DNA from: Gammaproteobacteria bacterium
GTDB lineage: Bacteria; Pseudomonadota; Gammaproteobacteria; Eutrophobiales; Eutrophobiaceae
DNA length: 64,000 bases
Assembly (NCBI GenBank): GCA_965116585.1
Contig: OZ220714.1
Location: 2,396,115-2,460,114 of the forward strand
Reading direction: 5' to 3'
The first letter of the stretch is position 1, and each line of letters opens with the position of its first letter. A model generated the notes under the pieces. That model made no database searches and was not told the DNA's origin. It saw nothing but the letters and a program-made list of their open reading frames with translations. Shown here one piece after another: positions 15,771 through 64,000 of this stretch. The position numbers were made by a program, and so were the translations under genes.

Positions 15771-17129
15771 ATGCCGGATACCGATGCGCATTTTGATACC
15801 CTGATATTGGGGCTTGGCAAGACCGGCTGGTCCTGCGTCAGGTACCTGGCCGGAGCCGGCGAGGACCTGGCAGTTGCCGACTCCAGGCCGGCGCCGCCGG
15901 AACTGGCGAGCCTGCGGCAGGGTTACCCGCAGGTGCCGTTCTTTGCCGGGGAATTCCGGCCCGACCTGCTGTGCCGGGCGCGCCGCTTGATCCTCAGTCC
16001 GGGTGTTGCGCCGGGTCACCCGGCCATCCGCGCCGCGGCCCGTGCCGGGGTGGAAGTTGTCGGCGACGTGGAAATTTTCTGCCGTCATATCAACGCGCCG
16101 CTGATTGCAGTCACCGGGTCCAACGGCAAGAGCACGGTGGTGAGCCTGCTGGCAAGGATGCTGGAGCAGGCGGGCCTGCGGGTGGGCCTGGGCGGTAACA
16201 TCGGCACGCCGGCGCTGGACCTGCTGTGCGCGCCGGCGCCGGATTATTACTTGCTGGAATTGTCCAGTTTCCAACTGGAGACCCTGCACTCGCACCAGCC
16301 TGTTGCCGCTGCAGTCCTGAACGTGTCGGCAGACCACCTGGACCGTTATCAGGACCTGCGTGATTACGCCCGCGCCAAGGAAAACATTTATGCCGGCGCC
16401 GGGGCCATGATCATCAACCTGGATGACGCAACAGTGCGCGCCATGCGCCGCCCGGGGCGCCGCGCCGTCACCTGTTCCCTGACACGTCCGGACGCGGATT
16501 TTCACCTGCGCGAACACAACGGCGAGACCTGGCTGGCGCGCCGTAATGAACCGTTGCTGAGACAGGCGGAACTCAGGGTGCACGGCTTGCATAACCTGGC
16601 GAACAGCCTGGCCAGCCTGGCCCTGGGCAGCGCCCTGGACCTGCCGTTGCCCGCCATGCTGGCAGCCTTGCGCGAGTTTGGCGGGTTACCCCACCGCTGT
16701 GAATGGGTGGCCGGGCTCAACGGCGTCAACTGGTTCAATGATTCGAAAGGTACCAACGTCGGCGCTACCCTGGCGGCCCTGCGCGGGTTGTCGGGCAAGC
16801 GTAACAATATTCTCCTGATCGCCGGCGGTGACGGCAAGGGCGCGGATTTCGCGCCGTTGGGGCAAGCTGTCGAGGAACACGTCAAGTCCACCATATTAAT
16901 AGGCAAGAGCGCGCCGGACATTGCCGCCGTTATACCGGATCAGAGCGCACTGTGTTACGCCACCGGCATGGAGGCCGCGGTGCATACGGCATTCCGTCTG
17001 GCACAGCCTGGGGATACCGTGCTGCTCTCCCCGGCCTGCGCCAGTTTCGATATGTTCAGGGATTTTGCCGCGCGCGGTGATGCGTTCAAACGCGCCGTCG
17101 CCGGGCTCGAGTCGGAGGTCGGGAACTGA
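15771..17129 (+). CDS. murD: UDP-N-acetylmuramoylalanine--D-glutamate ligase
   Basis: LILGLGKTGWS Rossmann N-terminus and GSNGKST. ATG at 15771 (MPDTDAHF) preferred over the ORF start at 15735. Confidence 0.88.
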   Translation: MPDTDAHFDTLILGLGKTGWSCVRYLAGAGEDLAVADSRPAPPELASLRQGYPQVPFFAGEFRPDLLCRARRLILSPGVAPGHPAIRAAARAGVEVVGDVEIFCRHINAPLIAVTGSNGKSTVVSLLARMLEQAGLRVGLGGNIGTPALDLLCAPAPDYYLLELSSFQLETLHSHQPVAAAVLNVSADHLDRYQDLRDYARAKENIYAGAGAMIINLDDATVRAMRRPGRRAVTCSLTRPDADFHLREHNGETWLARRNEPLLRQAELRVHGLHNLANSLASLALGSALDLPLPAMLAALREFGGLPHRCEWVAGLNGVNWFNDSKGTNVGATLAALRGLSGKRNNILLIAGGDGKGADFAPLGQAVEEHVKSTILIGKSAPDIAAVIPDQSALCYATGMEAAVHTAFRLAQPGDTVLLSPACASFDMFRDFAARGDAFKRAVAGLESEVGN

Positions 17130-18313
17130 TGCAGAAACTGCAGGCAGTCAACATTCAGCAAATGGATAGCGCAGGGTGGCATGACTATGATCCCTGGCTG
17201 GTCCTGGTGTTCATGTTCCTGCTGGTAGGGGGGTTGGTTATGGTCGCGTCCTCCTCCGTGGCCCTTGCCGATCGGGTGCACGACAATCCCCTCTACTATT
17301 TCCAGCGCCAGGCGGTTGCGGTGGCCGTGGGCCTGGCGCTGGCCTTTGTGATCGTCAGAATCCCGGTCGGGTTATGGCAGAAGATGGGTGTGCCGCTGCT
17401 GTTCCTGGCCATTGCCCTGCTGGCGCTGGTGCTGGTTCCAGGCGTTGGCCGCGAGGTCAACGGCAGCGTGCGCTGGATCAAGCTGGGCCCGATCAATTTT
17501 CAGGCTTCGGAACTGGCCAAGCTGTGCATGATCAGTTATGTCGCCGCCCACCTGGCGCCTCTTGCCGAGGCTCGGCGCCAGGGTTTCAGTAGTTTTATGC
17601 CTCCTCTCGCAGTGGTAACGCTGCTCTCGAGCCTGCTGTTGCTGGAACCGGATTACGGCACCGTTGTCGTTATTTTCCTGACCACGATAGGCGTGTTGTT
17701 CCTGGCCGGTATCCCGGCAGGCCGTTTTTTTCTGTGGTTACCGTTGATGGTGGCGGCGCTGGCAGCGTTGGCGGTGATTCCCGCTTACCGTCTGGCCAGG
17801 CTCAAGGCGTTTATCGACCCGTGGCAGGACCCGTTCAATTCCGGTTACCAGCTTATCCAGTCGCTGATCGCATTCGGCCGGGGTGAGTGGTTTGGTGTGG
17901 GCTTGGGCAGTAGCGTGCAAAAACTGTTTTACCTGACGCAGGCGCATACCGATTTTATTTTTGCCATTGCCGCCGAAGAACTGGGACTGCTTTTTTCACT
18001 GATGATTGCGAGCGCGTTTCTCTTCTTTATCTGGCGGGCATTCAGTATTGCCGCGTTTGCGCACCAGTCGCGCAAATATTTTGCCGCGTACATGGCCTAT
18101 GGCATCGGCCTGCTGATCGGTGTTCAAGCGTTCATTCACATGGGTGTCAACGTGGGCTTGTTGCCGACCAAGGGACTCACCCTGCCCCTGTTCAGTTACG
18201 GCGCCAACAGTATCGTCATCAGTTGCATACTGGTGGCCGTCCTGTTGCGCATTGATCTGGAAAACCGTTATCCGCGCGGCATCGGGATTTCCAGACAGGG
18301 GGTGGCGCCTTGA
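17129..18313 (+). CDS. ftsW: peptidoglycan glycosyltransferase / lipid II flippase FtsW
   Basis: SEDS family, 394 aa. ATG overlaps the murD stop (TGATG). Confidence 0.88.
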   Translation: MQKLQAVNIQQMDSAGWHDYDPWLVLVFMFLLVGGLVMVASSSVALADRVHDNPLYYFQRQAVAVAVGLALAFVIVRIPVGLWQKMGVPLLFLAIALLALVLVPGVGREVNGSVRWIKLGPINFQASELAKLCMISYVAAHLAPLAEARRQGFSSFMPPLAVVTLLSSLLLLEPDYGTVVVIFLTTIGVLFLAGIPAGRFFLWLPLMVAALAALAVIPAYRLARLKAFIDPWQDPFNSGYQLIQSLIAFGRGEWFGVGLGSSVQKLFYLTQAHTDFIFAIAAEELGLLFSLMIASAFLFFIWRAFSIAAFAHQSRKYFAAYMAYGIGLLIGVQAFIHMGVNVGLLPTKGLTLPLFSYGANSIVISCILVAVLLRIDLENRYPRGIGISRQGVAP

Positions 18314-19389
18314 AACAGAGCCCGATCATGATTATGGCGGGAGGCACGGGCGGGCACGTTTACCCGGCGCTGGCAGTGGCCGACTACCTGCGTGCGCAGG
18401 GCGTGCCGCTGTTCTGGCTGGGAACCCCGCGCGGTATTGAGAACCGGGTGGTGCCCGAGCACGGTATAGAATTGTTGACCGTCAAGGTAAGCGGTGTGCG
18501 CGGCAAGGGTTGGCGCAGCAAGCTCATTGCGCCGTTGACGATACTCAGTGCGATCCTGCAGGCAGTGCGCATCTGCCTGCGCCGGCAGCCGGCGGCGGCG
18601 CTGGGCATGGGCGGCTTTGCCAGCGGTCCCGGCGGGATTGCAGCCTGGCTGCTGCGCATCCCGTTGCTGATCCACGAGCAGAACCGGGTCGCCGGCACCA
18701 CTAACAGGATTCTGGCCCGGTTTGCAGCAACCATCATGCAGGGTTTTCCGGGCGCTTTCAGGGACAATGCCAGGGTCATTACCACGGGGAACCCGGTGCG
18801 CCAGGCCATAGTTGACTTGCCCGCACAGGCCCCGGATGGGTCGCGGCAACGCCTGAACGTGCTGGTGCTGGGCGGCAGCCAGGGCGCGCAACAATTGAAC
18901 CGGGTAACGCCGCAGGGCCTGAACCGCCTGCACCACCGGTTGCAAGTAAACGTCTGGCATCAATGTGGCGAACGGCATCTTGACGAGACCCAGCGCGTGT
19001 ATGCCGGTCTGCAACTGGACCAGGTCAGGATCGAACCGTTTATTACCGATATGGCAGCCGCTTATGGCTGGGCGGATGTTGCCGTGTGCAGGGCCGGCGC
19101 CCTGACCATTGCGGAATTGTGCGCAGCAGGCCTGCCGTCGATACTGGTGCCGTTCCCCTACGCCATTGATGATCACCAGACGGCCAATGCCCGCTACTTG
19201 AGCGACGCCGGCGCCGCGGCGCTGCTACCGGAAAACGAATTGACCGAAGCCGCCGTCGAAGAACTGCTGTGGCAGTTGTGCGGCGCGGACAACAGCTTGT
19301 CGGAACGGGCGCAAAAGGCCCGGCTGTGCGCATTCCCCGCGGCCGCGCAAACGGTAGGCGCATTGTGCCTGGAGCATGCTTATGCCTGA
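18310..19389 (+). CDS. murG: UDP-GlcNAc:undecaprenyl-PP-MurNAc-pentapeptide GlcNAc transferase
   Basis: MAGGTGGHVYPALAVA motif. The ORF start is TTG at 18310. ATG at 18328 or 18334 are possible true starts. Confidence 0.88.
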   Translation: MKQSPIMIMAGGTGGHVYPALAVADYLRAQGVPLFWLGTPRGIENRVVPEHGIELLTVKVSGVRGKGWRSKLIAPLTILSAILQAVRICLRRQPAAALGMGGFASGPGGIAAWLLRIPLLIHEQNRVAGTTNRILARFAATIMQGFPGAFRDNARVITTGNPVRQAIVDLPAQAPDGSRQRLNVLVLGGSQGAQQLNRVTPQGLNRLHHRLQVNVWHQCGERHLDETQRVYAGLQLDQVRIEPFITDMAAAYGWADVAVCRAGALTIAELCAAGLPSILVPFPYAIDDHQTANARYLSDAGAAALLPENELTEAAVEELLWQLCGADNSLSERAQKARLCAFPAAAQTVGALCLEHAYA

Positions 19390-19399
19390 AGGTCATAAC

Positions 19400-20785
19400 A
19401 TGAGGCGGGTCAGGCACGTTCACTTTGTCGGTATCGGCGGCGCCGGCATGAGCGGTATCGCCGAGGTGCTGCATAACCAGGGTTACACGGTGACGGGGAC
19501 GGACCTGCGCCGCGGCGGCAGTACGGACAGACTGGAAAAGCTGGGGGTCAGCATCAATTTTGCCCACCAGGCGCAATGTGTGAACGGCAGTGACGTGGTG
19601 GTGTATTCCAGCGCGGTGCCCGCAGATAACCCGGAACTGGTGGCCGCGCGCCGGCAACGTATTCCGATCATCCCACGTGCGGAAATGCTCTCGGAACTGA
19701 TGCGTTTCCGGGAAGGCGTTGCAGTGGCCGGCACGCACGGCAAGACCACCACTACCAGCCTCATCGCCAGCCTGCTGGCGGAGGGCATGTTCGACCCGAC
19801 CTATATCGTTGGCGGGCGCCTGAACATGAGCGGTTCGCATGCCCGCCTGGGCAAGGGGAAATACATTGTGGCCGAGGCGGATGAGAGTGACGCCTCGTTC
19901 CTGCACTTGTCACCGGTGTATGCCGTGCTGACCAATATCGACGCGGATCACCTGGAATACTGCGGCGGCAGTTACCAGGCCCTGCAAAACAATTTTATTG
20001 ACTTTCTGCATTGCCTGCCGTTCTACGGCCTGGTTGTGATTTGCGGCGATGACACCGGCATTCGGGAGATCGTGGCGCGTATCAACCGGCCCTATGTGAC
20101 TTACGGGATCGATTCCAGCGCCGATTACCGGGCTGAAGCAATCGAATACGATGGGGCCGTTACCCGTTTCAACGTCGTGCAACGCGCTGCTGATAATACG
20201 TTTCCAGTGACGCTGAACCTGCCGGGGCGCCACAATGTCCTCAATGCGCTGGCGGCAGTGGCGTTGGCAGCCGAACTTGGCATGTCGCAACAGGCCATCA
20301 GCGCCGGGCTGGAAAACTTCCAGGGCATCGCCCGCAGGAGCTCGATCCTGGGCGATATTGCTATCAACGGCAAGACTGTATTGCTGGTCGATGACTATGC
20401 CCACCACCCCAGTGAGATAAAGGTGATAGTCAGCGCCCTGGGCGCAGGCTGGCCCGGACGCAAGGTCGTGGTGGTATTCCAGCCGCACCGTTATACCCGC
20501 ACCCGCGACCTGTTTGATGAGTTCTGCCAAGTCCTCTCGACGCTCGATACCTTGATCCTGCTTGACGTCTATCCGGCCGGCGAGCAGCCGATACAGGGCG
20601 CTGACAGCCGTTCCCTGAGTCGGGCATTGCGGGTGCGCAGCAAGCTGGAGCCTATTCTCGTCAGTGAGGAACCGGAATTGTTGGGCGTGCTGCAGAACGT
20701 AACCGACAGCAACGACATCCTGCTGCTGCTGGGCGCCGGCGATATCGGCAACCTGGGCGGCCGCTTGCTGGAGTTATACGGGTAG
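19400..20785 (+). CDS. murC: UDP-N-acetylmuramate--L-alanine ligase
   Basis: MRRVRHVHFVGIGGAGMSGIAEVL and GTHGKTTTT. ATG at 19400 chosen. Confidence 0.88.
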   Translation: MRRVRHVHFVGIGGAGMSGIAEVLHNQGYTVTGTDLRRGGSTDRLEKLGVSINFAHQAQCVNGSDVVVYSSAVPADNPELVAARRQRIPIIPRAEMLSELMRFREGVAVAGTHGKTTTTSLIASLLAEGMFDPTYIVGGRLNMSGSHARLGKGKYIVAEADESDASFLHLSPVYAVLTNIDADHLEYCGGSYQALQNNFIDFLHCLPFYGLVVICGDDTGIREIVARINRPYVTYGIDSSADYRAEAIEYDGAVTRFNVVQRAADNTFPVTLNLPGRHNVLNALAAVALAAELGMSQQAISAGLENFQGIARRSSILGDIAINGKTVLLVDDYAHHPSEIKVIVSALGAGWPGRKVVVVFQPHRYTRTRDLFDEFCQVLSTLDTLILLDVYPAGEQPIQGADSRSLSRALRVRSKLEPILVSEEPELLGVLQNVTDSNDILLLLGAGDIGNLGGRLLELYG

Positions 20786-28251: not shown

Positions 28252-28359
28252 CCCTCGCTTGTCTTTTTACCTGCTGCGGGCGCGTGCTCCCTCAACCATA
28301 AGAACCACTACGCTCCCGGTTGCAGGCACCCGCAGCAGGTAAAAATCCGACGCGAGCAT
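28252..28359. repeat. nested-palindrome repeat element, copy 2 (core GTGCTCCCTCAACC...GCAGGCACCC)
   Basis: gccctcgcttgtcttt-[stem cctgctgcgggcgc]-gtgctccctcaaccata...gcaggcaccc-[stem gcagcagg]-aaatccgacgcgagca. The stems differ from copy 1 but stay complementary. Confidence 0.75.
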
Positions 28360-28370
28360 TGCATTACCTG

Positions 28371-31055
28371 ATGAGAACTCTTTTCACGAAAATCTTCGGC
28401 AGCAGGAATGCGCGCGTCCTGAAAAAGATGCACAAGGCGGTCGAGCGCATCAACGCGCTTGAAGCGGACGTTGCCGCGCTGGCGGACGCTGAGTTTCCGC
28501 AACAAACCGCGCAGTTGAAGTCCCGGCTGGAACGCGGTGAAACCCTGGAGGAACTCTTGCCGGAGGCCTTTGCGCTGGTGCGCGAGGCAGGCAGGAGAAC
28601 CCTGAACATGCGCCATTTCGACGTGCAGCTTCTGGGCGGGATCGTCCTGCAGCGCGGCAACATAGCGGAAATGCGCACCGGCGAGGGCAAGACCCTGGTG
28701 GCGACCCTGCCGGCCTATCTCAATGCCCTGGGCGGCGCCGGCGTGCATATCATCACCGTGAACGATTACCTGGCACAACGTGACGCAGAGTGGATGGGCG
28801 CCATCTATACGTTCCTGGGAATGACTACCGGGGTGATTGTGTCCGGCCTGAACAATGAGGAACGCAAGCGCGCCTATGCCGCGGATATCACCTACGGCAC
28901 CAACAATGAATTCGGTTTCGACTACCTGCGCGACAACATGAAGTTCCGCGGGGATGAGCAGGTGCAACGCAGCCTGACGTACGCGATTGTGGATGAGGTG
29001 GATTCGATCCTGATCGATGAAGCGCGTACGCCGCTCATCATCTCCGGCATGGTGGATGACCGCTCCGACCTGTACCTGGCCATGAACAAGATAGTGCCGC
29101 GCCTGACGTTGCAGCAAGAGGAAGACGACGGCGGCGATTACGTACTGGACGAAAAGAGCAAACAGGCTTACCTGACGGAAGCAGGTCACGAACGGGTGGA
29201 AAAGCTGTTGCTGGAGCATAACATCATGCAGCCCGGCATGAGCCTGTACGATTCGGTGAATATCCCCATCCTGCATCACCTGAACGCGGCGCTGCGCGCC
29301 CAGTCCCTGTTCCACAATGACGTGGATTACATCGTCCAGAGTAATGAAGTGGTTATCGTCGATGAGTTCACCGGCAGGACGATGCCGGGGCGGCGCTGGT
29401 CCGACGGCCTGCACCAGGCCATCGAGGCCAAGGAAAACGTGACCATCCAGAATGAGAACCAGACCCTGGCGACCATCACCTACCAGAATTACTTCCGCCT
29501 CTATGAAAAGCTGGCCGGCATGACCGGCACTGCGGACACCGAGGCCTATGAGTTTCAGCAGATCTACGGCCTGGAAGTGGTGGTGGCGCCGACCCACCTG
29601 CCCATGATCAGGGATGACCAGGCGGACATGATCTACCTGAGCGCCCGCGAGAAATTCAACGCCATCATTGATGATATCAAGACCTGTAAGGAGAGCGGCC
29701 AGCCGGTGCTGGTGGGCACCGTATCCATTGAAGTATCGGAATACCTGTCCGGCCAGTTGAAAAAACAGAAGATCAAACACCAGGTACTGAATGCCAAGTA
29801 CCATGAAAAAGAAGCCGAGATCATTGCCCAGGCCGGAAGCCCGGGCGCGGTGACGATCGCGACGAACATGGCCGGACGCGGCACCGACATCGTGCTGGGC
29901 GGAAACCTGGACGCGGAGATCAAGGCCCTGGAAGACGTTGACGCCGACACGCTGGAGCAGGTCAGGGCAGCCTGGCAGACGCGCCATGATCAGGTGATCA
30001 GTGTCGGCGGGTTGCGTATCATCGGCACCGAGCGGCATGAATCCAGACGTATCGACAACCAGTTGCGGGGCCGGTCGGGACGCCAGGGCGACCCGGGCTC
30101 GAGCCGCTTCTACATTTCCCTGGAAGATGACCTGATGCGTATTTTCGCATCGGAACGGGTGTCATCCATCATGCAACGGCTGGGAATGGAAGAGGGGGAG
30201 GCCATCGAATCCAACCTGGTTACCAAGGCGATAGAAAACGCGCAACGGAAAGTGGAAGCCCACAACTTCGATATCCGCAAGCACCTGCTGGAATATGACG
30301 ACGTTGCCAACGATCAGCGCAAGGTGATTTATGAATGGCGTAACGAACTGCTGGGTGGCGATGATGTAGCCACGGATATCCACAGCATGCGGGAGGACGT
30401 CATCAAGGGTATTTTTGCAACCCATATTCCTCCCGACAGCCTGGATGAGATGTGGAATGTGAGCGGATTGACGGACGCCCTGGGTAATGAACTGAGCGTG
30501 CACCTGCCCGTGCAGGAGTGGCTGGAACAGGATGCCACCCTGGCTGAGGAGGCCTTGCTGAACAAGGTGCTGGAAAGCGTTACCGCTGAGGTGAAGAACA
30601 GGCATGCCGAACTGCCGGAGGAGCTGGTGCGCCGGGTGGAAAAGAGCCTGATGCTGGATACGCTGGACCGTCACTGGAAGGAACATCTGGTTGCCATGGA
30701 TCATTTGCGCCAGGGCATCGGACTGCGTGGCTATGCAGCCAGGAACCCCAAGCAGGAATACAAGAAGGAAGCATTCGCCATGTTCAGCGACATGCTGGAA
30801 AACATCAAATATGACGTCGTTACCCTGCTCGCAAAGATACAGATCAGGGAAGAGCAGGACGCGCAACTGTTGCCGCGCCGTTCCCAACCCGCGGCCATGC
30901 AGTACAATCACCCCGACGCGCCCAGCGCCATGGGCACACCGGAGGAGGCCCCGCAACAAAAGCCGTTTATCCGCAATCAAAGAAAGATCGGCCGCAACGA
31001 ACCCTGTCCCTGCGGGTCCGGGAAGAAATACAAACTCTGTCATGGCAAGCTGTAG
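28371..31055 (+). CDS. secA: preprotein translocase ATPase SecA
   Basis: [21 protein letters not shown]-terminus. C-terminal [15 protein letters not shown] zinc finger. Confidence 0.95.
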
Positions 31056-38618: not shown

Positions 38619-40014
38619 AGTTATTGTCAAATCTGGTGTATGGCATCATAGTCAGGCGGCCCGTTTGTGTTGCTCAAGGGTCTCTTCTCTCACGCCGTCA
38701 ATAAACGTCACATTCTCAATCACATCGGCCAGGTGCTTAAACCCCCGCATCCGGCGCCAATTCTTCTCCGCACATAACCCCAGCTTGTAGACCATGGTTA
38801 GCAGGCTGGTGCGGCTGACGCAGCCCCGCGTCCTGGCAGTGCGTAACCGTACCGTCGCAAACGTCGACTCAATCGGATTGGTCGTCCGGATCGACTGCCA
38901 GTGTGCCGCCGGGAAGTCATAGAAGGCCAATAATGAATCCCGATCTGCGTCCAAGCAGGCGGCGGCCTTGGGATACTTGTCTTCGTAGGTGCGGAGAAAC
39001 CGGTCCAACGCCCGGCTCGCCGCGGCCCGGCTCTCGGCCATCCAGATAGCCTGTAACCCCTGCTTGGCTTTGGCCTGGACCCCCTTGGGCAATTTGTTCA
39101 AGACATTGGCCATCTTGTGCACCCAGCAGCGCTGTGTGCGGGTCGTGGGATACACCTCCGCCAACGCCGCCCAGAACCCCAACGCCCCATCGCCAATGGC
39201 CAGCGACGGCGGCGCGAAACCCCGAGACTGCAAATTCACCAGCAACTCGCACCAGCTCTGTTTGGACTCCCGGTAGCCGTCCTCCACCGCCAATAACGCC
39301 TTCCTGCCCCACTCATCCACCCCGACCATCACCAGCAAACACTGCCGGGCCTCATCACCCCGCACGGTGAAGTAAATCCCGTCCACCCACACGTACACGT
39401 AACGCTGTCTATGAAAATCCCGACTGCACCAGGTTCGGTACTCCTCCTCCCACACCCGCTTCAACCGACTCACCGTCGCCGCCGAGAGACCTCGCGCCTG
39501 CGCCCCCAACAACGCCGCCAGCGCAGCCTGCATGTCCCCCGTCGAGACGCCCTTCAAATACAACCACGGCAGCACACTCTCGACACTCGCCGTGCGCTTG
39601 ATATACGGCGGCAGCAAGGCAGAACTAAAATGCCGGCCCCGGCCACCCCGGTCCCGCGTCTTCGGCACCCGTATCGGTACCTCCCCCAACCCGGTCGTCA
39701 CCGTGCGCGCCGGTAAATACCCGTTCCGGACAATGGACCGGCGACCCGCTGCATCGCACTCGCCCGCATGCTCAGACAAATACGTCGCCAACTCCGCCTC
39801 CACGGCACTGTGCAACAGCGCCCGGGCACCGTCGCGTAATAAACTCTCCAACGGTGTCCATGCCTCGACTCGCTTTTCCAGGGAAATTACCGTATCGTTC
39901 TTCATGGTGGTGTACTCCTCTCATGTTGTTGGTTGTCTTCGAAAAAACACCATTTTACAACATCGGGTGCACCACCTCACTACGCAGCCCATACACCAGA
40001 AATGAGCATAACTC
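38619..40014 (-). mobile_element. IS256-family insertion sequence (1396 bp) with imperfect terminal IRs and 9-bp target-site duplication AGTGGTTGT
   Basis: Left end gagttattgtcaaatctggtgtatgg. Right end ccatacaccagaaatgagcataactc (reverse complement matches). TSD at 38610-38618 and 40015-40023. Confidence 0.85.
38652..39905 (-). CDS. IS256-family (mutator-type) transposase
   Basis: 417 aa with DDE motif region, ...WVDGIYFTV...CWVHKMANVL... Confidence 0.9.
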   Translation of the reverse strand: MKNDTVISLEKRVEAWTPLESLLRDGARALLHSAVEAELATYLSEHAGECDAAGRRSIVRNGYLPARTVTTGLGEVPIRVPKTRDRGGRGRHFSSALLPPYIKRTASVESVLPWLYLKGVSTGDMQAALAALLGAQARGLSAATVSRLKRVWEEEYRTWCSRDFHRQRYVYVWVDGIYFTVRGDEARQCLLVMVGVDEWGRKALLAVEDGYRESKQSWCELLVNLQSRGFAPPSLAIGDGALGFWAALAEVYPTTRTQRCWVHKMANVLNKLPKGVQAKAKQGLQAIWMAESRAAASRALDRFLRTYEDKYPKAAACLDADRDSLLAFYDFPAAHWQSIRTTNPIESTFATVRLRTARTRGCVSRTSLLTMVYKLGLCAEKNWRRMRGFKHLADVIENVTFIDGVREETLEQHKRAA

Positions 40015-58704: not shown

Positions 58705-59946
58705 ATGACCAAGTCAGCCCGATATTTTCTACTGTTGCTGAGCGTGCACTTGTCTCAACCTTCGGCGCAGGACTCTGTTGATGCCGAACAGCAGCAAGCC
58801 GCCGCCAACTACGAAGCGCGTATCACCGAACTGGAGGCAGCCGCTGGTCCCCACGCCGCAGAGCTTGCCGAGGTTCGTTTGAGTCTGGGTTTGTTGCGCC
58901 AACAGGCGGGAGACCATGGGCAGGCGCTGGCGGCGTTGCAGGACGCGCTGCAAACGGTGCGCGTCAACGACGGGCTGTACAGCATGAGCCAGATCGCCAT
59001 TCTGGAAGCCATCATCGACAGCCATGTGGCCCTGGGCGCCAGGGACGAACTGCGCCGCGACTACGAATACCTGTTCTGGTTATACTCGCGCAACTACGGC
59101 ACGGATAACGCCGGCCTCGTGCCGGTGATAAAGAGAGTAGGGCAGTGGTACTTCAATCTGTATAACCTGGCGCCGCCCAACACAACAGTAGAGCCCCTGA
59201 TAGCCGCAGACGATCTGTATGCAAAAGCGCTGAAGATTCTGCCTGAAGACAGCCCGTCCCGGGACCGGATAGACATATTATATAAGGTAGCTGTCATCAA
59301 CCATCACATCGCTGAGGACATAAAGGACCCCATGCTTTCCCACCGGGAGATACGTGAAGCCATGATCCCGCATGGCCGGGCCTCTCCCTATGTCAACGAA
59401 GTGGCTGTGCGGCAGTACTATGCCGACCAGAGTTTCTACAAGGGCAAGCGTTCACTGAAGCGTATCGTAGAGTCTTATGAAAAAGACCTGCCCGGTACGC
59501 TGATGGACTATGCCCGGGCGCTGGTGTTCATGGGCGACTGGCTGACCGTACAGCGCCGGGTGATGGAAGGCGCCCGCATGTATCGACGCGCCTGGGCCGC
59601 CCTGGCCGACCACAACGCAGACCCGGCCCAGGTGGATGAACTGTTCGGCGAGCCGCAGCCCATTGAGCAGCTTCCCATCCCCGGCGAACCGGAACCGGAA
59701 GCCGATCAGGACAGCTACTACGTAGACGCGCTGCTGGACGTACCCGCATCAGGCTGGCCCCGGAATATCAGGATACAGGCAACCCACCCGTCCGCAGAAA
59801 CCACGTTAATCAAACGCGCCGAACGCGGTATTGCAGCTACTCGCTACCGTCCCCGCTACGACAGCGGCCAACCGGTCGGCACTACGGATATTTCCCTGCG
59901 CTTCGTCTTCAAGTACCAGCAGCAGCCCGGCTGGTTTCATTTTTGA
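58705..59946 (+). CDS. secreted hypothetical protein, TPR-like N-region plus TonB-C-like C-terminal domain
   Basis: Signal peptide; C-terminal ~90 aa resemble the TonB_C fold. Confidence 0.55.
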   Translation: MTKSARYFLLLLSVHLSQPSAQDSVDAEQQQAAANYEARITELEAAAGPHAAELAEVRLSLGLLRQQAGDHGQALAALQDALQTVRVNDGLYSMSQIAILEAIIDSHVALGARDELRRDYEYLFWLYSRNYGTDNAGLVPVIKRVGQWYFNLYNLAPPNTTVEPLIAADDLYAKALKILPEDSPSRDRIDILYKVAVINHHIAEDIKDPMLSHREIREAMIPHGRASPYVNEVAVRQYYADQSFYKGKRSLKRIVESYEKDLPGTLMDYARALVFMGDWLTVQRRVMEGARMYRRAWAALADHNADPAQVDELFGEPQPIEQLPIPGEPEPEADQDSYYVDALLDVPASGWPRNIRIQATHPSAETTLIKRAERGIAATRYRPRYDSGQPVGTTDISLRFVFKYQQQPGWFHF

Positions 59947-60269
59947 TCTGGCAACATTTCAGGTTGAACGGCCTAAACCAAGTTCGGAAACAGTCTGGAA
60001 ATAGATAGTCCTGAGACAGATGACAGAGATGAGCGTCATACGAGTCGCGACAGATTATTTTCCATGACAGATTCCTCCTTATCGGTTCGGTTCAGTTGGC
60101 GTTCAACAACAGCCGGACATGGAAGACCGGCACGTGATAATATCAGTCTATGCGGGAGGAAAAGGGTGAGGGGAGAAAAATTCCAGAGTAATTTCGGGAC
60201 AAGCAGGCCGGAAGCCCTGGACAAACACCCGAATATAGGTAAAAATACCCCAATTCGGTCATTTTGGCG

Positions 60270-60590
60270 TATACTTGACAGGAATTCCTGATAAACTACT
60301 AAAAACTTGACATCAGAATATTTTTTTTCTTATTATTCTGTTGACAACACTGAACAAACCTGACATATTGCGAACATTTTAAGGCAACAGGGGCATTCAG
60401 CGGGCAAATACGTTGACAGACCTGCAACTTTTTTCTATTATGCAGTTGACATATTCCATGAATAGCGGCATATTGCAACATATCAGAAAAGGTTGTATCA
60501 TGGCCAACAGACCATGGGGAGCCCCATTGACAAGATTTAGAAAGTTAGTTGTTGACATATACACGCCAAAGTGCGATATTTGTGAACAAT
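60270..60590 (+). promoter_or_regulatory. tandem sigma70-like promoter array in an AT-rich island: 7 TTGACA hexamers, two of them in near-identical TTGACA-N17-ttttttc-TATTAT modules
   Basis: TTGACA at 60275, 60307, 60341, 60413, 60446, 60527, 60552. TATTAT at 60331 and 60436. AGGAG Shine-Dalgarno at 60672-60676 before the RTX ATG. Confidence 0.55.
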
Positions 60591-60684
60591 GATTGTTTTT
60601 TTTCAAAAGTATGTAATAATGCGATTTACCGCATAAATACGTAAAGAATTCGTTTACTTCTACTGATTAACAGGAGAAAAAGAT

Positions 60685-63600
60685 ATGCCTTACAAAGTCG
60701 AAACTATGTTGATGGGAGGGGATGCGCCTAATGACACCTCGACAGAACTTTGCTTCAATCCGCCCAATGGGCCGTTCGAGGGCAACGAGGTAACGGGCAC
60801 CATCACCACAAGGGGCGATGAAGACTGGATTGCCATAGAACTCAGTGAGGGCAAGGAATACACCATTACCGTGGCTACCAGGCATACCATGGATGCTGAC
60901 GATACAGTCGATTCTGATGAGGATGGTACGGATGATAACGATCGGGACGCTGGCGGCCTCAACGACTCCGTCCTGAAGTTGCTGGATGGCAAGGGTGGCG
61001 TGATCGACATGAACGACGATATCGACGCGGCAAAGGGCATGCTGAATTCGGAGTTGAAGTTTACGCCTGAGGCAGGCAGCGGTACGCAGAAGTATTACAT
61101 CAGCGTCAGTGGCTACACGGGCAACCCGGGCGCCAATAATACCGGTGGTTACACAGTCTCAGTGTCAGAGAAGGCTGTGTTGGCGGTTGGTTCGGGTGTG
61201 GGCATACCGGGCACCGACAATGCTGACAAGCTTTTCGGTACTGACCTGTCAGAATCCATTACAGGTATGGGCGGCGATGACACCATAGACGGCATGGGCG
61301 GCGATGACACCATAGACGGCGGTGACGGCAACGACCTGCTTATCGGCGGCAAGGGCGCTGACAAGCTGACGGGTGGTGATGGGGACATGGACACCATAAG
61401 CTACCGTGGTTCCGTAGCAGGCGTGACCATCAACTTGTCTGACGGCACGGCCAGGGGTGGCGATGCTGAGGGCGATACGATTAGCGATGATATTGAGAAC
61501 GTCATAGGTTCCGAACATGACGACATGCTGACCGGCAACAGGGCAGTCAACAGTCTCTGGGGCCTGGGCGGCAATGATGAACTCGACGGTGGTCGCAGAA
61601 ATGACAAGCTGTACGGCGGCGCTGGCGATGACATGCTGGACGGCGGCGCCGGCAATGATACGCTGGAAGGCGGTTACGGCGCCGACATGCTGACCGGTGG
61701 CGAGGGCGATGATACTGCCTCCTACAGCATGTCCATGATGGGCGTCACGGTGCGCCTGCACAGTGGCCAGGCCATGGGCGGTGACGCCGAAGGCGACACC
61801 TGGAACCTGTCTGTTCCCCAAACGTATACCAACGGTGATGAAGAAGAGGTTGAAGTAAACCTTGCCGATATCATAAACCTGACCGGTTCGGCCAATGACG
61901 ACATCCTGGCGGGCGACATGAGGGACAACATCATCATGGGCGGCGCCGGCAACGACAGGATTTACGGTGGCCCGAACCCGGCTGATGCGGACACGGAGTC
62001 GGATGCAGGCCTTAGCAATGCCGACACCCTGCACGGTGACGGCGGCGACGACAGGATCTTCGGCGGCATCGGCGGCGATATCCTCAGGGGCGGCGCCGGG
62101 GATGACATGCTGCATGGCGGTCCGGGTAATGACACGTTCTGGGGTGGCCACGGTAGCGACATGATCTACGCCGATGCTATGGATACCCACATTTATGGCA
62201 ATCGCCCGGATAATACCGAGCCGGACGGTACCGTGATTGACCCTGCTACTGCTGACGTTGACGAAAGCATGGAAATGGAAGGCGATGTCGACACCGTTTC
62301 CTATGCGAGGCTGGAAGAGGGAATAACCAGGACACTTGGTAGTGATGGAACGGGCAGTGCAGATGCGACTGATGGTACTAATATTCTCATTATGGGAATT
62401 GAAAACATTATCGGCACCCAAGGTGATGACACTATTACCGGCGATACCGGTGCTAACGTTATCGAAGGTGGTGAAGGCGGTGATGACCTTGACGGCGGAG
62501 ATGGAATCGATACCCTTTCTTATGAAAGTTCCGACGACTGGGTCAGAGTAACACTGAATGGCGCTAGCGCGGCGACTACCTCCAGGGGGCATGCTTCAGG
62601 CGATGAGGCCGAGAATTTCGAAAACCTCACAGGGTCTGCTTATGATGACGACCTGACCGGTGATGATGTGGCGGCTGGGAATGTGATCAAGGGTCTGGCC
62701 GGCGATGATGATATCGAAGGCATGGGCGGCAACGACACAATAGAAGGTGGCGCCGGCGCCGATGAGTTGGACGGCGGTTACACTCCTGTTAATGCTGCGG
62801 GTACTGATGCGGGTACTAGTCCGGCTGATGATGGTAATAGGAATTTCGAAGCGAACACCTTGTCCTATGCAAATTCAGACGCGGGTGTCACGGTGAACCT
62901 GGCGACTGCCAGTGCTTCCGGCGGCCATGCTACGGGCGATACCATTGCGACTTACGAAGAGCTTTCTCCCACGACCGAGGATCCGGACAACGAGGTTGAC
63001 GTTGCTACGTTTGCGCACGTCGTCGGGTCCATGTACGGTGACCGGCTGACCGGTGACAAACAAGACAACCACCTGACCGGTGGCGGTGGTGATGACACCC
63101 TCAGGAGTGGAGCCGGCGCCGACCGCGTTATAGGCGGCCCCGGTGCGGACGTGCTCGACGGTGGCGAGGACATGGGTGAAAAGAACGATATGGTCCCGAA
63201 CCCTGCATTTGATGCCACACTGGATGAAAGTGATGCTAATCCCAGAATGGTCGCCGCTTCCGTGGACTGGGCAGTCTACAAGCACGCGGCGGCGGGCGTC
63301 ACGGTGGACCTGTCAACCGGCATGGGCACCGGCGGTGAGGCCATGGGCGATACTTTGATGAACATTGAGTTGATCTGGGGTTCCGAACATGCCGACACCT
63401 TCATAGCCAGTTCCGGAGCCGATACCATCGAAGGTGACGGCGGCAGCGATACCGTCTCCTACGAGGCCTCGTCAATGGGCGTCACGGTCAACCTGGGTGA
63501 AAGCACTCAGCACAGGATAGCGACAGCCACTGGCACAGGCACCGAGGCCGACCCGTTTGTATTCCCTGTAGACGATCCGGCTACGGTCGTTCGGCCTACG

Positions 63601-64000
63601 GCTGGTGTGCCCAGATTGGACGCAATGGGTAATCCATTCGTTGATGGTACTAACGTTGAGCATGAGGACGACAACCCGAATGCCAATGGCGCTGCGGGTG
63701 ACAGGCTGGGCAGTATCGAGAACCTGACCGGTTCCAACCAGAAGGACATGCTGACCGGCGATGCCAACCCCAACGTCCTCAAGGGCATGGGCGGCGATGA
63801 TACGCTGAGCGGTGGCACTGGTGGCGAAGATAAGCTCTATGGTGGAGACGGTGATGATATGCTGACCGGCTCTGGTAGCGATGGTGACATGCTGGATGGC
63901 GGAGCAGGCGATGATACGATCATCGGCAGCACTGGTGATGATACGATCACCGGCGGCGCCGGCGATGACGACCTGAGCGGCGGCACTGGCAATGATACAT
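60685..64000 (+). CDS. giant RTX (hemolysin-type calcium-binding GGxGxDxUx repeat) protein, N-terminal PPC-like domain; 3' end beyond window
   Basis: Hand translation from ATG 60685 is open for 1105 codons to the window end. N-terminus has G.I..RGDEDWIAIELSEGKEYTITV...DSVLKLLDGKG...YYISVSGY (pre-peptidase C-terminal-like), then dozens of GG[AD]G[ND]D nonapeptides. Not in the ORF track because no stop occurs in the window. Confidence 0.85.
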   Translation, partial: MPYKVETMLMGGDAPNDTSTELCFNPPNGPFEGNEVTGTITTRGDEDWIAIELSEGKEYTITVATRHTMDADDTVDSDEDGTDDNDRDAGGLNDSVLKLLDGKGGVIDMNDDIDAAKGMLNSELKFTPEAGSGTQKYYISVSGYTGNPGANNTGGYTVSVSEKAVLAVGSGVGIPGTDNADKLFGTDLSESITGMGGDDTIDGMGGDDTIDGGDGNDLLIGGKGADKLTGGDGDMDTISYRGSVAGVTINLSDGTARGGDAEGDTISDDIENVIGSEHDDMLTGNRAVNSLWGLGGNDELDGGRRNDKLYGGAGDDMLDGGAGNDTLEGGYGADMLTGGEGDDTASYSMSMMGVTVRLHSGQAMGGDAEGDTWNLSVPQTYTNGDEEEVEVNLADIINLTGSANDDILAGDMRDNIIMGGAGNDRIYGGPNPADADTESDAGLSNADTLHGDGGDDRIFGGIGGDILRGGAGDDMLHGGPGNDTFWGGHGSDMIYADAMDTHIYGNRPDNTEPDGTVIDPATADVDESMEMEGDVDTVSYARLEEGITRTLGSDGTGSADATDGTNILIMGIENIIGTQGDDTITGDTGANVIEGGEGGDDLDGGDGIDTLSYESSDDWVRVTLNGASAATTSRGHASGDEAENFENLTGSAYDDDLTGDDVAAGNVIKGLAGDDDIEGMGGNDTIEGGAGADELDGGYTPVNAAGTDAGTSPADDGNRNFEANTLSYANSDAGVTVNLATASASGGHATGDTIATYEELSPTTEDPDNEVDVATFAHVVGSMYGDRLTGDKQDNHLTGGGGDDTLRSGAGADRVIGGPGADVLDGGEDMGEKNDMVPNPAFDATLDESDANPRMVAASVDWAVYKHAAAGVTVDLSTGMGTGGEAMGDTLMNIELIWGSEHADTFIASSGADTIEGDGGSDTVSYEASSMGVTVNLGESTQHRIATATGTGTEADPFVFPVDDPATVVRPTAGVPRLDAMGNPFVDGTNVEHEDDNPNANGAAGDRLGSIENLTGSNQKDMLTGDANPNVLKGMGGDDTLSGGTGGEDKLYGGDGDDMLTGSGSDGDMLDGGAGDDTIIGSTGDDTITGGAGDDDLSGGTGNDT

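Follow-up and report, generated by a model that had tools for sequence, protein, structure and literature searches.

Substrates of type I secretion with RTX repeats are familiar, as are proteins with pre-peptidase C-terminal (PPC) domains, and public protein predictions already contain the two in combination, unnamed. Among the closest described systems, CyaA of Bordetella pertussis has five RTX blocks, and adhesins of the LapA/MpIBP type are held by a folded N-terminal module. RTX proteins of surface layers (S-layers) show a non-RTX domain at the N-terminus, RTX repeats at the C-terminus and an uncleaved signal, have masses of 40-200 kDa and are very abundant (PMC3034196). Here we describe a gene that joins both elements and lies at the end of a 64,000-nucleotide stretch of a Gammaproteobacteria bacterium (GCA_965116585.1, contig OZ220714.1, positions 2,396,115 to 2,460,114 of the forward strand; in the following the window). 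As judged from its sequence and from structural models, the product is on balance probably a secreted, calcium-folded RTX rod with a PPC binding head, i.e. an adhesin-like or coat-like surface protein and not a cytolysin. The gene itself is ordinary; its family is uncharacterised, has a narrow distribution among symbiont-type metagenome-assembled genomes (MAGs) and could mediate attachment to an animal host matrix.

PPC domain, RTX blocks and C-terminal tail

A one-genome-per-species scan led to ten related loci, which are referred to by L numbers where they have to be told apart. The coding features of the window gene are the following.

60685..64000, forward strand: partial coding sequence of the PPC-RTX protein (open frame, start, colinearity with L001-L003)
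60781..61176, forward strand: beta-sandwich of the PPC or collagenase collagen-binding-domain type, aa 33-164 (PF04151, fold model, profile search)
60883..60963, forward strand: acidic loop inserted into the PPC domain and modelled with low confidence, aa 67-93, RHTMDADDTVDSDEDGTDDNDRDAGG (length and sequence vary between homologues)
61198..64000, forward strand: RTX region (Pfam, motif maps, fold model)

In frame +1, no stop codon interrupts the sequence between the ATG at 60685 and the last base of the window at 64000, and the 1105 codons counted agree with the more than 1100 of the first-pass annotation. An in-frame TGA is located seven codons 5' of this ATG, which is the first start after it and is preceded by the Shine-Dalgarno sequence AGGAG, and the N-terminal MPYK is common to the window protein and all homologues. 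The window protein is colinear over its whole length with L001-L003 (1270-1319 aa; identity 55-59%) and breaks off at GTGNDT. Because these homologues end 114-133 residues past the window's last codon, a full-length protein of ~1,230 aa (about 1,220-1,240) is expected, of which the window would hold the first ~90%, with a normal stop codon expected ~350-400 nt past the window end. By this comparison the protein is large, not giant as it had been labelled at first. Neither an exact DNA scan of Joint Genome Institute (JGI) metagenome contigs with a 57-mer from 63700-63756, nor a scan of the same contigs with the conserved 5' leader pattern, nor an exact-protein look-up of the proteins of two upstream neighbours gave a match, so that the C-terminus was taken from the homologues.

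The PPC-like fold that had been proposed for the first 170 aa was recovered by profile search and fold model as well as in the homologues. The first 182 residues of the window copy matched PF04151 across the full profile (1-70 of 70) with 23.3 bits and E = 1.2e-4, at a gathering cut-off of 25.9 bits. Five homologues scored above this cut-off (L001, 26.2 bits; L004, 27.0 bits; L007, 29.8 bits; L008, 33.7 bits; L009, 31.6 bits), and these are the homologues without the long acidic insert. The sub-cut-off score of the window copy coincides with a 20-aa acidic insert (aa ~67-93) that is missing in L001 and measures 0-26 aa in relatives, and the low score can be attributed to this loop. An AlphaFold model of the N-terminal domain, built on 15 family sequences, led to an eight-stranded beta-sandwich for aa 33-164, with a block-mean predicted local distance difference test (pLDDT) of ~70-88 in the core, low-confidence loops at aa 70-89 and 113-119, and a pLDDT below 50 for the acidic loop. 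Foldseek returned as best matches the collagen-binding domains (CBDs) of ColH/ColG (3jqw, 1nqj, 4hpk, 1nqd) and also the PPC domain of a Bacillus anthracis collagenase (5sv5), with a probability of 1.00 and TM-scores (target) of 0.60-0.67 for all these; a second group of matches comprised the claudin-binding domain of the C. perfringens enterotoxin. Collagen binding by the PPC domain may be regarded as a lead, not as a result. A profile of the N-terminal domain of the family matched 38,682 cluster representatives among 1.84 billion, the best matches being proteins with up to 33 tandem copies (top matches E = 0). All seven top matches that were scanned carry 3-8 PF04151 domains, and five of the seven additionally carry cadherin or Calx-beta domains, which are adhesion-type architectures. 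From these profiles and models, the PPC assignment of the N-terminal domain is sound.

Pfam HemolysinCabind (PF00353) matched the protein in 15 stretches (E = 4.2e-73), in keeping with its first description as a calcium-binding RTX repeat protein, and PPC and RTX were the only Pfam assignments. Eight nonapeptide blocks (~aa 172-235, 284-342, 411-496, 577-612, 670-697, 799-826, 917-925 and 1025-1105+) are separated by seven linker modules of the CyaA type (aa 236-284, 343-410, 536-586, 609-659, 724-790, 861-909 and 922-1025), which share the motif DT.SY..GVTVNL..GG.A.GD..IEN.TGS..DD.LTG and contain inserts that vary in length. Five of these linkers were recovered with a regular expression; the two others (aa 724-790 and 922-1025) are evident in the translation and in conserved columns. 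The linker length of 60-80 aa noted before is roughly right, the measured range being wider (49-104 aa). A second AlphaFold model (aa 1-342) showed aa 172-330 as a continuous beta-roll with a strand each 9 residues and pLDDT values mostly of 80-92; this beta-roll continues unbroken through the first linker, and a short hinge joins the PPC domain to the RTX blocks. By sequence, the closest solved relatives of the RTX part are the CyaA RTX fragments 7usl, 7rah and 6sus, with whose inter-block linkers the window linkers align, and Foldseek likewise matched the modelled RTX part to the CyaA RTX domain.

All full-length family members (1185-1319 aa) end in DG[V/I]FIL. In the colinear homologues, 114-133 aa follow after the position of the window's last codon; of these tails, those of L001 and L002 align with the post-RTX region of serralysin and ZapA models, and no significant match was obtained when the 114-aa tail was compared with PDB sequences. 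The distant relatives L008 (652 aa) and L009 (663 aa) combine PPC, RTX and Peptidase_M10_C and end in ...EADFIF. In a further protein of 208 aa (P0028), a PPC domain is joined directly to a serralysin-type end (...GGGTITLQ...DFIFAA) with no RTX block; this build suggests a passenger role for PPC, which would leave export and scaffolding to RTX and tail.

Proposed surface role and its alternatives

The window protein is extremely acidic (pI about 4.05; D+E 20%, K+R 4%), rich in Gly (18%) and contains one Cys. Its N-terminus MPYKVETMLMGGDAPNDTSTE is polar, and with a maximum 19-residue hydropathy of 1.05 it has no signal peptide, membrane segment or pore-forming domain. No enzymatic domain was found in the window protein. 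With this composition and architecture, the following route may be proposed. An unlinked type I secretion system would export the protein C-terminus first, and outside the cell calcium would fold the ~1,000-residue RTX part into a chain of beta-rolls, giving a stiff rod. Displayed by this rod, the PPC domain would act as a head that binds an insoluble polymer or surface, e.g. host collagen/spongin or chitin. Very high expression is suggested by the three to five near-consensus sigma-70 promoters of a conserved array upstream of the gene. The otherwise identical paralogues L002 and L003 differ mainly in the acidic PPC loop, and such variability is as expected for an exposed surface. A diversity-generating retroelement was considered as the origin of the variable loop and rejected, as the paralogues differ by indels plus substitutions.

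Several points weigh against this picture of an exported rod with a binding head. The PPC score of the window copy sits below the Pfam cut-off, and identity to the ColG/ColH CBDs is 15-18% at a TM-score of ~0.65. The C-terminus of the window copy lies past base 64000, so that secretion signal and intactness are not visible in the window. Among the genes scanned in the 60 kb upstream there was no ABC exporter, HlyD-type adaptor or TolC, and the flanks of L001-L009 and L011 contained no type I secretion genes, including 4-10 kb downstream of the full-length homologues. The promoters are predicted solely from matches to the consensus, and a sponge origin is documented, for at least one MAG, only via the 'APA_bin' naming, which belongs to MAGs of the sponge Aplysina aerophoba (PMC11706023). 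The first-pass annotation had predicted a type I secretion system encoded beyond the window; the genes of such systems often, though not necessarily, adjoin that of the substrate, and here the system, if present, is probably unlinked.

A serious rival, which we regard as possible rather than likely, is an S-layer protein comparable to Caulobacter RsaA or Campylobacter rectus Crs/CsxA, in which the RTX part would coat the cell with a calcium-dependent lattice and the PPC domain would serve as the envelope anchor. A length of ~1,230 aa, the acidic pI, the single Cys and the two-part build match RTX S-layer proteins, and the conserved multi-promoter array fits the very large amounts in which such proteins are made (PMC3034196). 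However, similarity to RsaA is limited to the RTX repeats (E ~1e-3), the N-terminal domain is unrelated to the RsaA anchor, and secretion genes of the rsaA type are not adjacent. Several diverged paralogues per genome and a hypervariable loop would also be less typical of a lattice protein.

Alternatively, the N-terminal beta-sandwich could act as a retention plug in the outer-membrane channel and tether the rod as in LapA/MpIBP, with the RTX blocks and linkers as the binding part. Type I substrates exit C-terminus first, which means that the N-terminal domain leaves last, and CyaA binds its integrin receptor via the RTX domain (PDB 7usl). Nevertheless we consider a plug improbable: a conserved di-alanine site of the LapG type is absent (DAAKG in the window protein, with AA at aa 115-116, but DPAKG in L001), Ig-like extender repeats were not detected by Pfam, and the 50 best matches listed per fold search included no structure of a retention module. 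Furthermore, the hypervariable acidic loop argues for exposure to the outside, and the relatives found with the PPC profile are extracellular adhesion-type proteins.

A cytolytic or host-cell-targeting RTX toxin, in spite of partial NCBIfam matches to the RTX hemolysin and EhxA models and a block-and-linker build resembling CyaA, is barely plausible, as these matches and those to serralysin models cover repeats only and lie far below cut-off (RTX_toxin, 165 bits versus 1000), and as there is neither a hydrophobic pore-forming segment (maximum KD19 1.05) nor an enzymatic domain nor, among the neighbours scanned, an rtxC acyltransferase or rtxBD. That the protein is not a classical pore-forming toxin had already been suggested in the first-pass annotation, and the low hydropathy and the lack of an rtxC-like gene among the scanned neighbours bear this out. 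Genes like cyaC/cyaBDE, lapBCE, lapG or lapD were not found among these neighbours either.

Tandem pair, upstream region and related loci

Three further features belong to the locus.

61267..61320, forward strand: perfect in-frame tandem pair of 2 x 27 bp encoding MGGDDTIDG twice (27/27 identity)
60275..60580, forward strand: array of near-consensus sigma-70-type promoter-like sites (consensus matches, positional conservation)
60644..60676, forward strand: conserved 5' leader AAGAATTCGTTTACTTCTA with the Shine-Dalgarno sequence AGGAG at 60672-60676 (near-invariant across loci)

The unit ATGGGCGGCGATGACACCATAGACGGC is present twice, exact and in frame (61267-61293 and 61294-61320), and the exact period-27 run covers precisely these 54 bases, which encode the first two nonapeptides of RTX block 1. 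No other exact repeat of at least 18 nt exists in the gene. Over all in-frame positions the identity of adjacent 27-mers averaged 10.3 (standard deviation 4.0), and the best pair outside the array reached 23/27 (61600-61603); with 27/27, the perfect pair is therefore far outside what RTX periodicity itself yields. The window and every homologue carry four nonapeptides at this site (in L001 LAGDDTIYG-LGGDDSLSG-GAGADLLVG-GPGGDELKG), the first two units of the homologues being 17-21/27 identical in DNA as against 27/27 in the window. As four units occur in all homologues, the event replaced a unit and added none, and by this alignment one nonapeptide unit is overwritten by its neighbour, apparently through intragenic conversion or through a slippage duplication offset by a 27-bp loss. 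Since the two units agree at every synonymous site, the event must be recent. Thus, of the earlier interpretation, a recent slippage or recombination is in accord with the perfect pair next to diverged homologues, whereas a duplication with variation in repeat number is not, since the number of nonapeptides is the same everywhere. An assembly or polishing artefact of the repetitive region might also be suspected, given that public assemblies often contain interrupted copies of related genes: L011 is split into several open reading frames (ORFs) on a contig with the label '10x', L006 is frameshifted, and many database fragments end in frameshifts. The change in the window is in frame, unlike in these frameshifted relatives, and it keeps the four units and leaves the 1105-codon frame intact, which makes an artefact very unlikely. 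The pair is a clean case of unit-for-unit homogenisation in an RTX block and cautions against reading perfect tandems as expansions in copy number. An antisense ORF of 447 aa (61249-62592, reverse strand) inside the RTX gene is most likely a by-product of the GGC/GAC-rich repeats and not a gene.

The intergenic region upstream of the RTX gene measures 740 bp and contains five near-consensus promoter-like sites, two of the form TTGACA-N18/17-TATTAT starting at 60307 and 60413 and three of the form TTGACA-N17-[C/G]ATATT starting at 60341, 60446 and 60552. The promoter-site scan gave 9 sites with 1.9 expected, and TTGACA-N18-ATATT was found three times in the whole window, always in the array (expected 0.01). 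The promoter-like pairs recur each ~105 bp within a 105-bp direct repeat. The three sites of the second form, at -344, -239 and -133, hold their position in L002-L004, and in L007 this is true of the two distal ones. Over the 385 bp before the start codon, identity to L002, L003, L004 and L007 is 75-79%, compared with 69-74% for the coding sequence. This better conservation of a regulatory region with a striking array of strong promoter-like sites is one of the notable features of the locus. We infer a conserved promoter region, presumably of high output, that travels with the gene. The leader core TTCGTTTACTTCTA is identical in all nine aligned loci; the window and the 8 related loci contain it a single time each, always just upstream of a gene of the PPC-RTX family. 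UUUACUUCU can pair with AGGAGAAAA to a hairpin over the Shine-Dalgarno sequence, which is a hint only, as the hairpin is weak (consensus -1.7 kcal/mol, leader z-score -0.37) and shows no covariation. A search of 59900-60800 against Rfam gave no credible match, the sole match being a snoRNA with E = 0.49.

Directly upstream of the RTX gene is an ORF of 413 aa (58705-59946, forward strand) with an N-terminal hydrophobic stretch resembling a signal peptide, for which neither a Pfam match nor an exact copy in the public gene index was found. The 60 kb upstream contain housekeeping genes (sucCD, nadE, clpB, hisD, aroA, mlaC, an MMPL transporter, purN, secDF, an SLT transglycosylase and egtD). As judged from the ORF list, a run at ~10-26 kb has the order and sizes of a cell-division (dcw) cluster, and the ORF 28320-31055 is of SecA size. 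A transposase of the Mutator/IS256 family (38652-39905, reverse strand) is located among the housekeeping genes between clpB and a pseudouridine synthase gene.

The exception among the related loci, which otherwise all come from records named 'MAG: Gammaproteobacteria bacterium', is L010, where a Rhodocyclaceae MAG gave a weak and partial match. Homologues from long-read assemblies are intact ORFs of 1270, 1305 and 1319 aa, and further homologues measure 1185, ~1206 and 1265 aa. Most family proteins in public predictions are short fragments that result from contig ends and frameshifts. CBDBDW010000002 carries three family copies, including a frameshifted one, APA_bin_93 carries two, and in OZ244846 there are two PPC-RTX genes. 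No description of a PPC-RTX family was found in the literature on RTX or PPC-RTX proteins of sponge symbionts. The family is small, unnamed and found so far only in MAGs of uncultured Gammaproteobacteria.

Over 10 kb upstream and most of the gene, L002 and L003 (both CBDBDW010000002.1, 1-12400) are 100% identical. Two parts differ sharply, namely the acidic PPC loop with its surroundings (68 differences within codons 1-133) and the last third of the gene at the 3' side. Mosaic recombination between paralogues is one possible cause, an artefact of strain collapse another. At L001 a convergent PPC-RTX paralogue of 1177 aa is located at 16954-20487, and at L007 (14087-19678) a second RTX protein of 1863 aa with 18 Pfam stretches follows immediately downstream of the family member. 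The 652-aa PPC-RTX-Peptidase_M10_C gene of L008 (292-11893) stands directly after an 860-aa protein with Spondin_N and cadherin-like domains (animal-matrix-like), with a gspD/E/F type II secretion cluster nearby. L011 (971-13040), the closest database relative with 71% N-terminal identity, adjoins a type II Cas9, hipBA and a Fic gene.

A more far-reaching proposal would be that the gene, the array of three to five promoters and the near-invariant leader form one cassette, which has been multiplied (2-3 copies per genome) in a clade of sponge-associated Gammaproteobacteria and whose product is the dominant, variable coat or host-matrix (collagen/spongin) adhesin of this clade. The hypervariable acidic PPC loop indeed differs even between paralogues with 100% identical flanks, but taken as a whole we consider the proposal doubtful. 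If it were true, exchange between paralogues would provide surface variation against host recognition or phages.

Comparison with known systems

With giant RTX adhesins of the LapA/MpIBP type the window protein has in common that it is a predicted type I substrate with a folded N-terminal domain, a C-terminal RTX part and a presumed surface role. Unlike these, it has no Ig-like extenders and no conserved LapG site, lapBCE, lapG or lapD are not among the nearby genes, and at ~1,230 aa it is several-fold smaller (5,047 residues and 1.5 MDa in published adhesins of this type).

The CBDs of ColG/ColH (1nqd, 1nqj, 3jqw) and the B. anthracis PPC domain (5sv5) resemble the N-terminal domain in the beta-sandwich fold (TM-score ~0.6-0.67), and PF04151 is matched over the whole profile. 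In ColG/ColH, however, the domain is found at the C-terminus of a protease, here at the N-terminus of a non-enzymatic RTX protein. The window PPC domain moreover carries the variable acidic loop, its identity to the ColG/ColH CBDs is 15-18%, and collagen binding is a predicted candidate function only.

Serralysin-family proteases and lipases (AprA, PrtC, LipA) are similar at the C-terminal end, as the post-RTX tails of the homologues align with C-terminal regions of serralysin/ZapA, Peptidase_M10_C is matched by L008 and L009, and at the very end of the chains hydrophobic residues follow an acidic one. In contrast to them, the window protein has no catalytic domain and a much longer RTX region, and the main PPC-RTX family shows an extra extension of ~30 residues ending in DG[VI]FIL.

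RTX S-layer proteins (RsaA of Caulobacter crescentus; Crs, CsxA and CsxB of Campylobacter rectus; SwmA) differ from the window protein in that its N-terminal domain is a PPC domain and not an RsaA-type anchor, similarity is at the level of the repeats only, and secretion genes are unlinked. Shared features are a length of 1,000-1,400 aa, an acidic and nearly cysteine-free composition, a non-RTX N-terminal domain in front of C-terminal RTX repeats, a predicted uncleaved signal and an expected high expression (PMC3034196).

Compared with CyaA (7usl, 7rah, 6sus), the window protein has eight RTX blocks, is without adenylate cyclase, hydrophobic and acylation domains, carries an N-terminal PPC domain instead, and has no cyaC/cyaBDE-like genes near its gene. 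Nevertheless, CyaA is the best match to the RTX part in both sequence and fold, with nonapeptide blocks and linkers showing the common motif D-T-V-x-Y ... G-I/V-x-x-x-L ... I-E-N-L-x-G-S-x-x-D, and the calcium-driven beta-roll and type I export of CyaA are predicted for the window protein as well.

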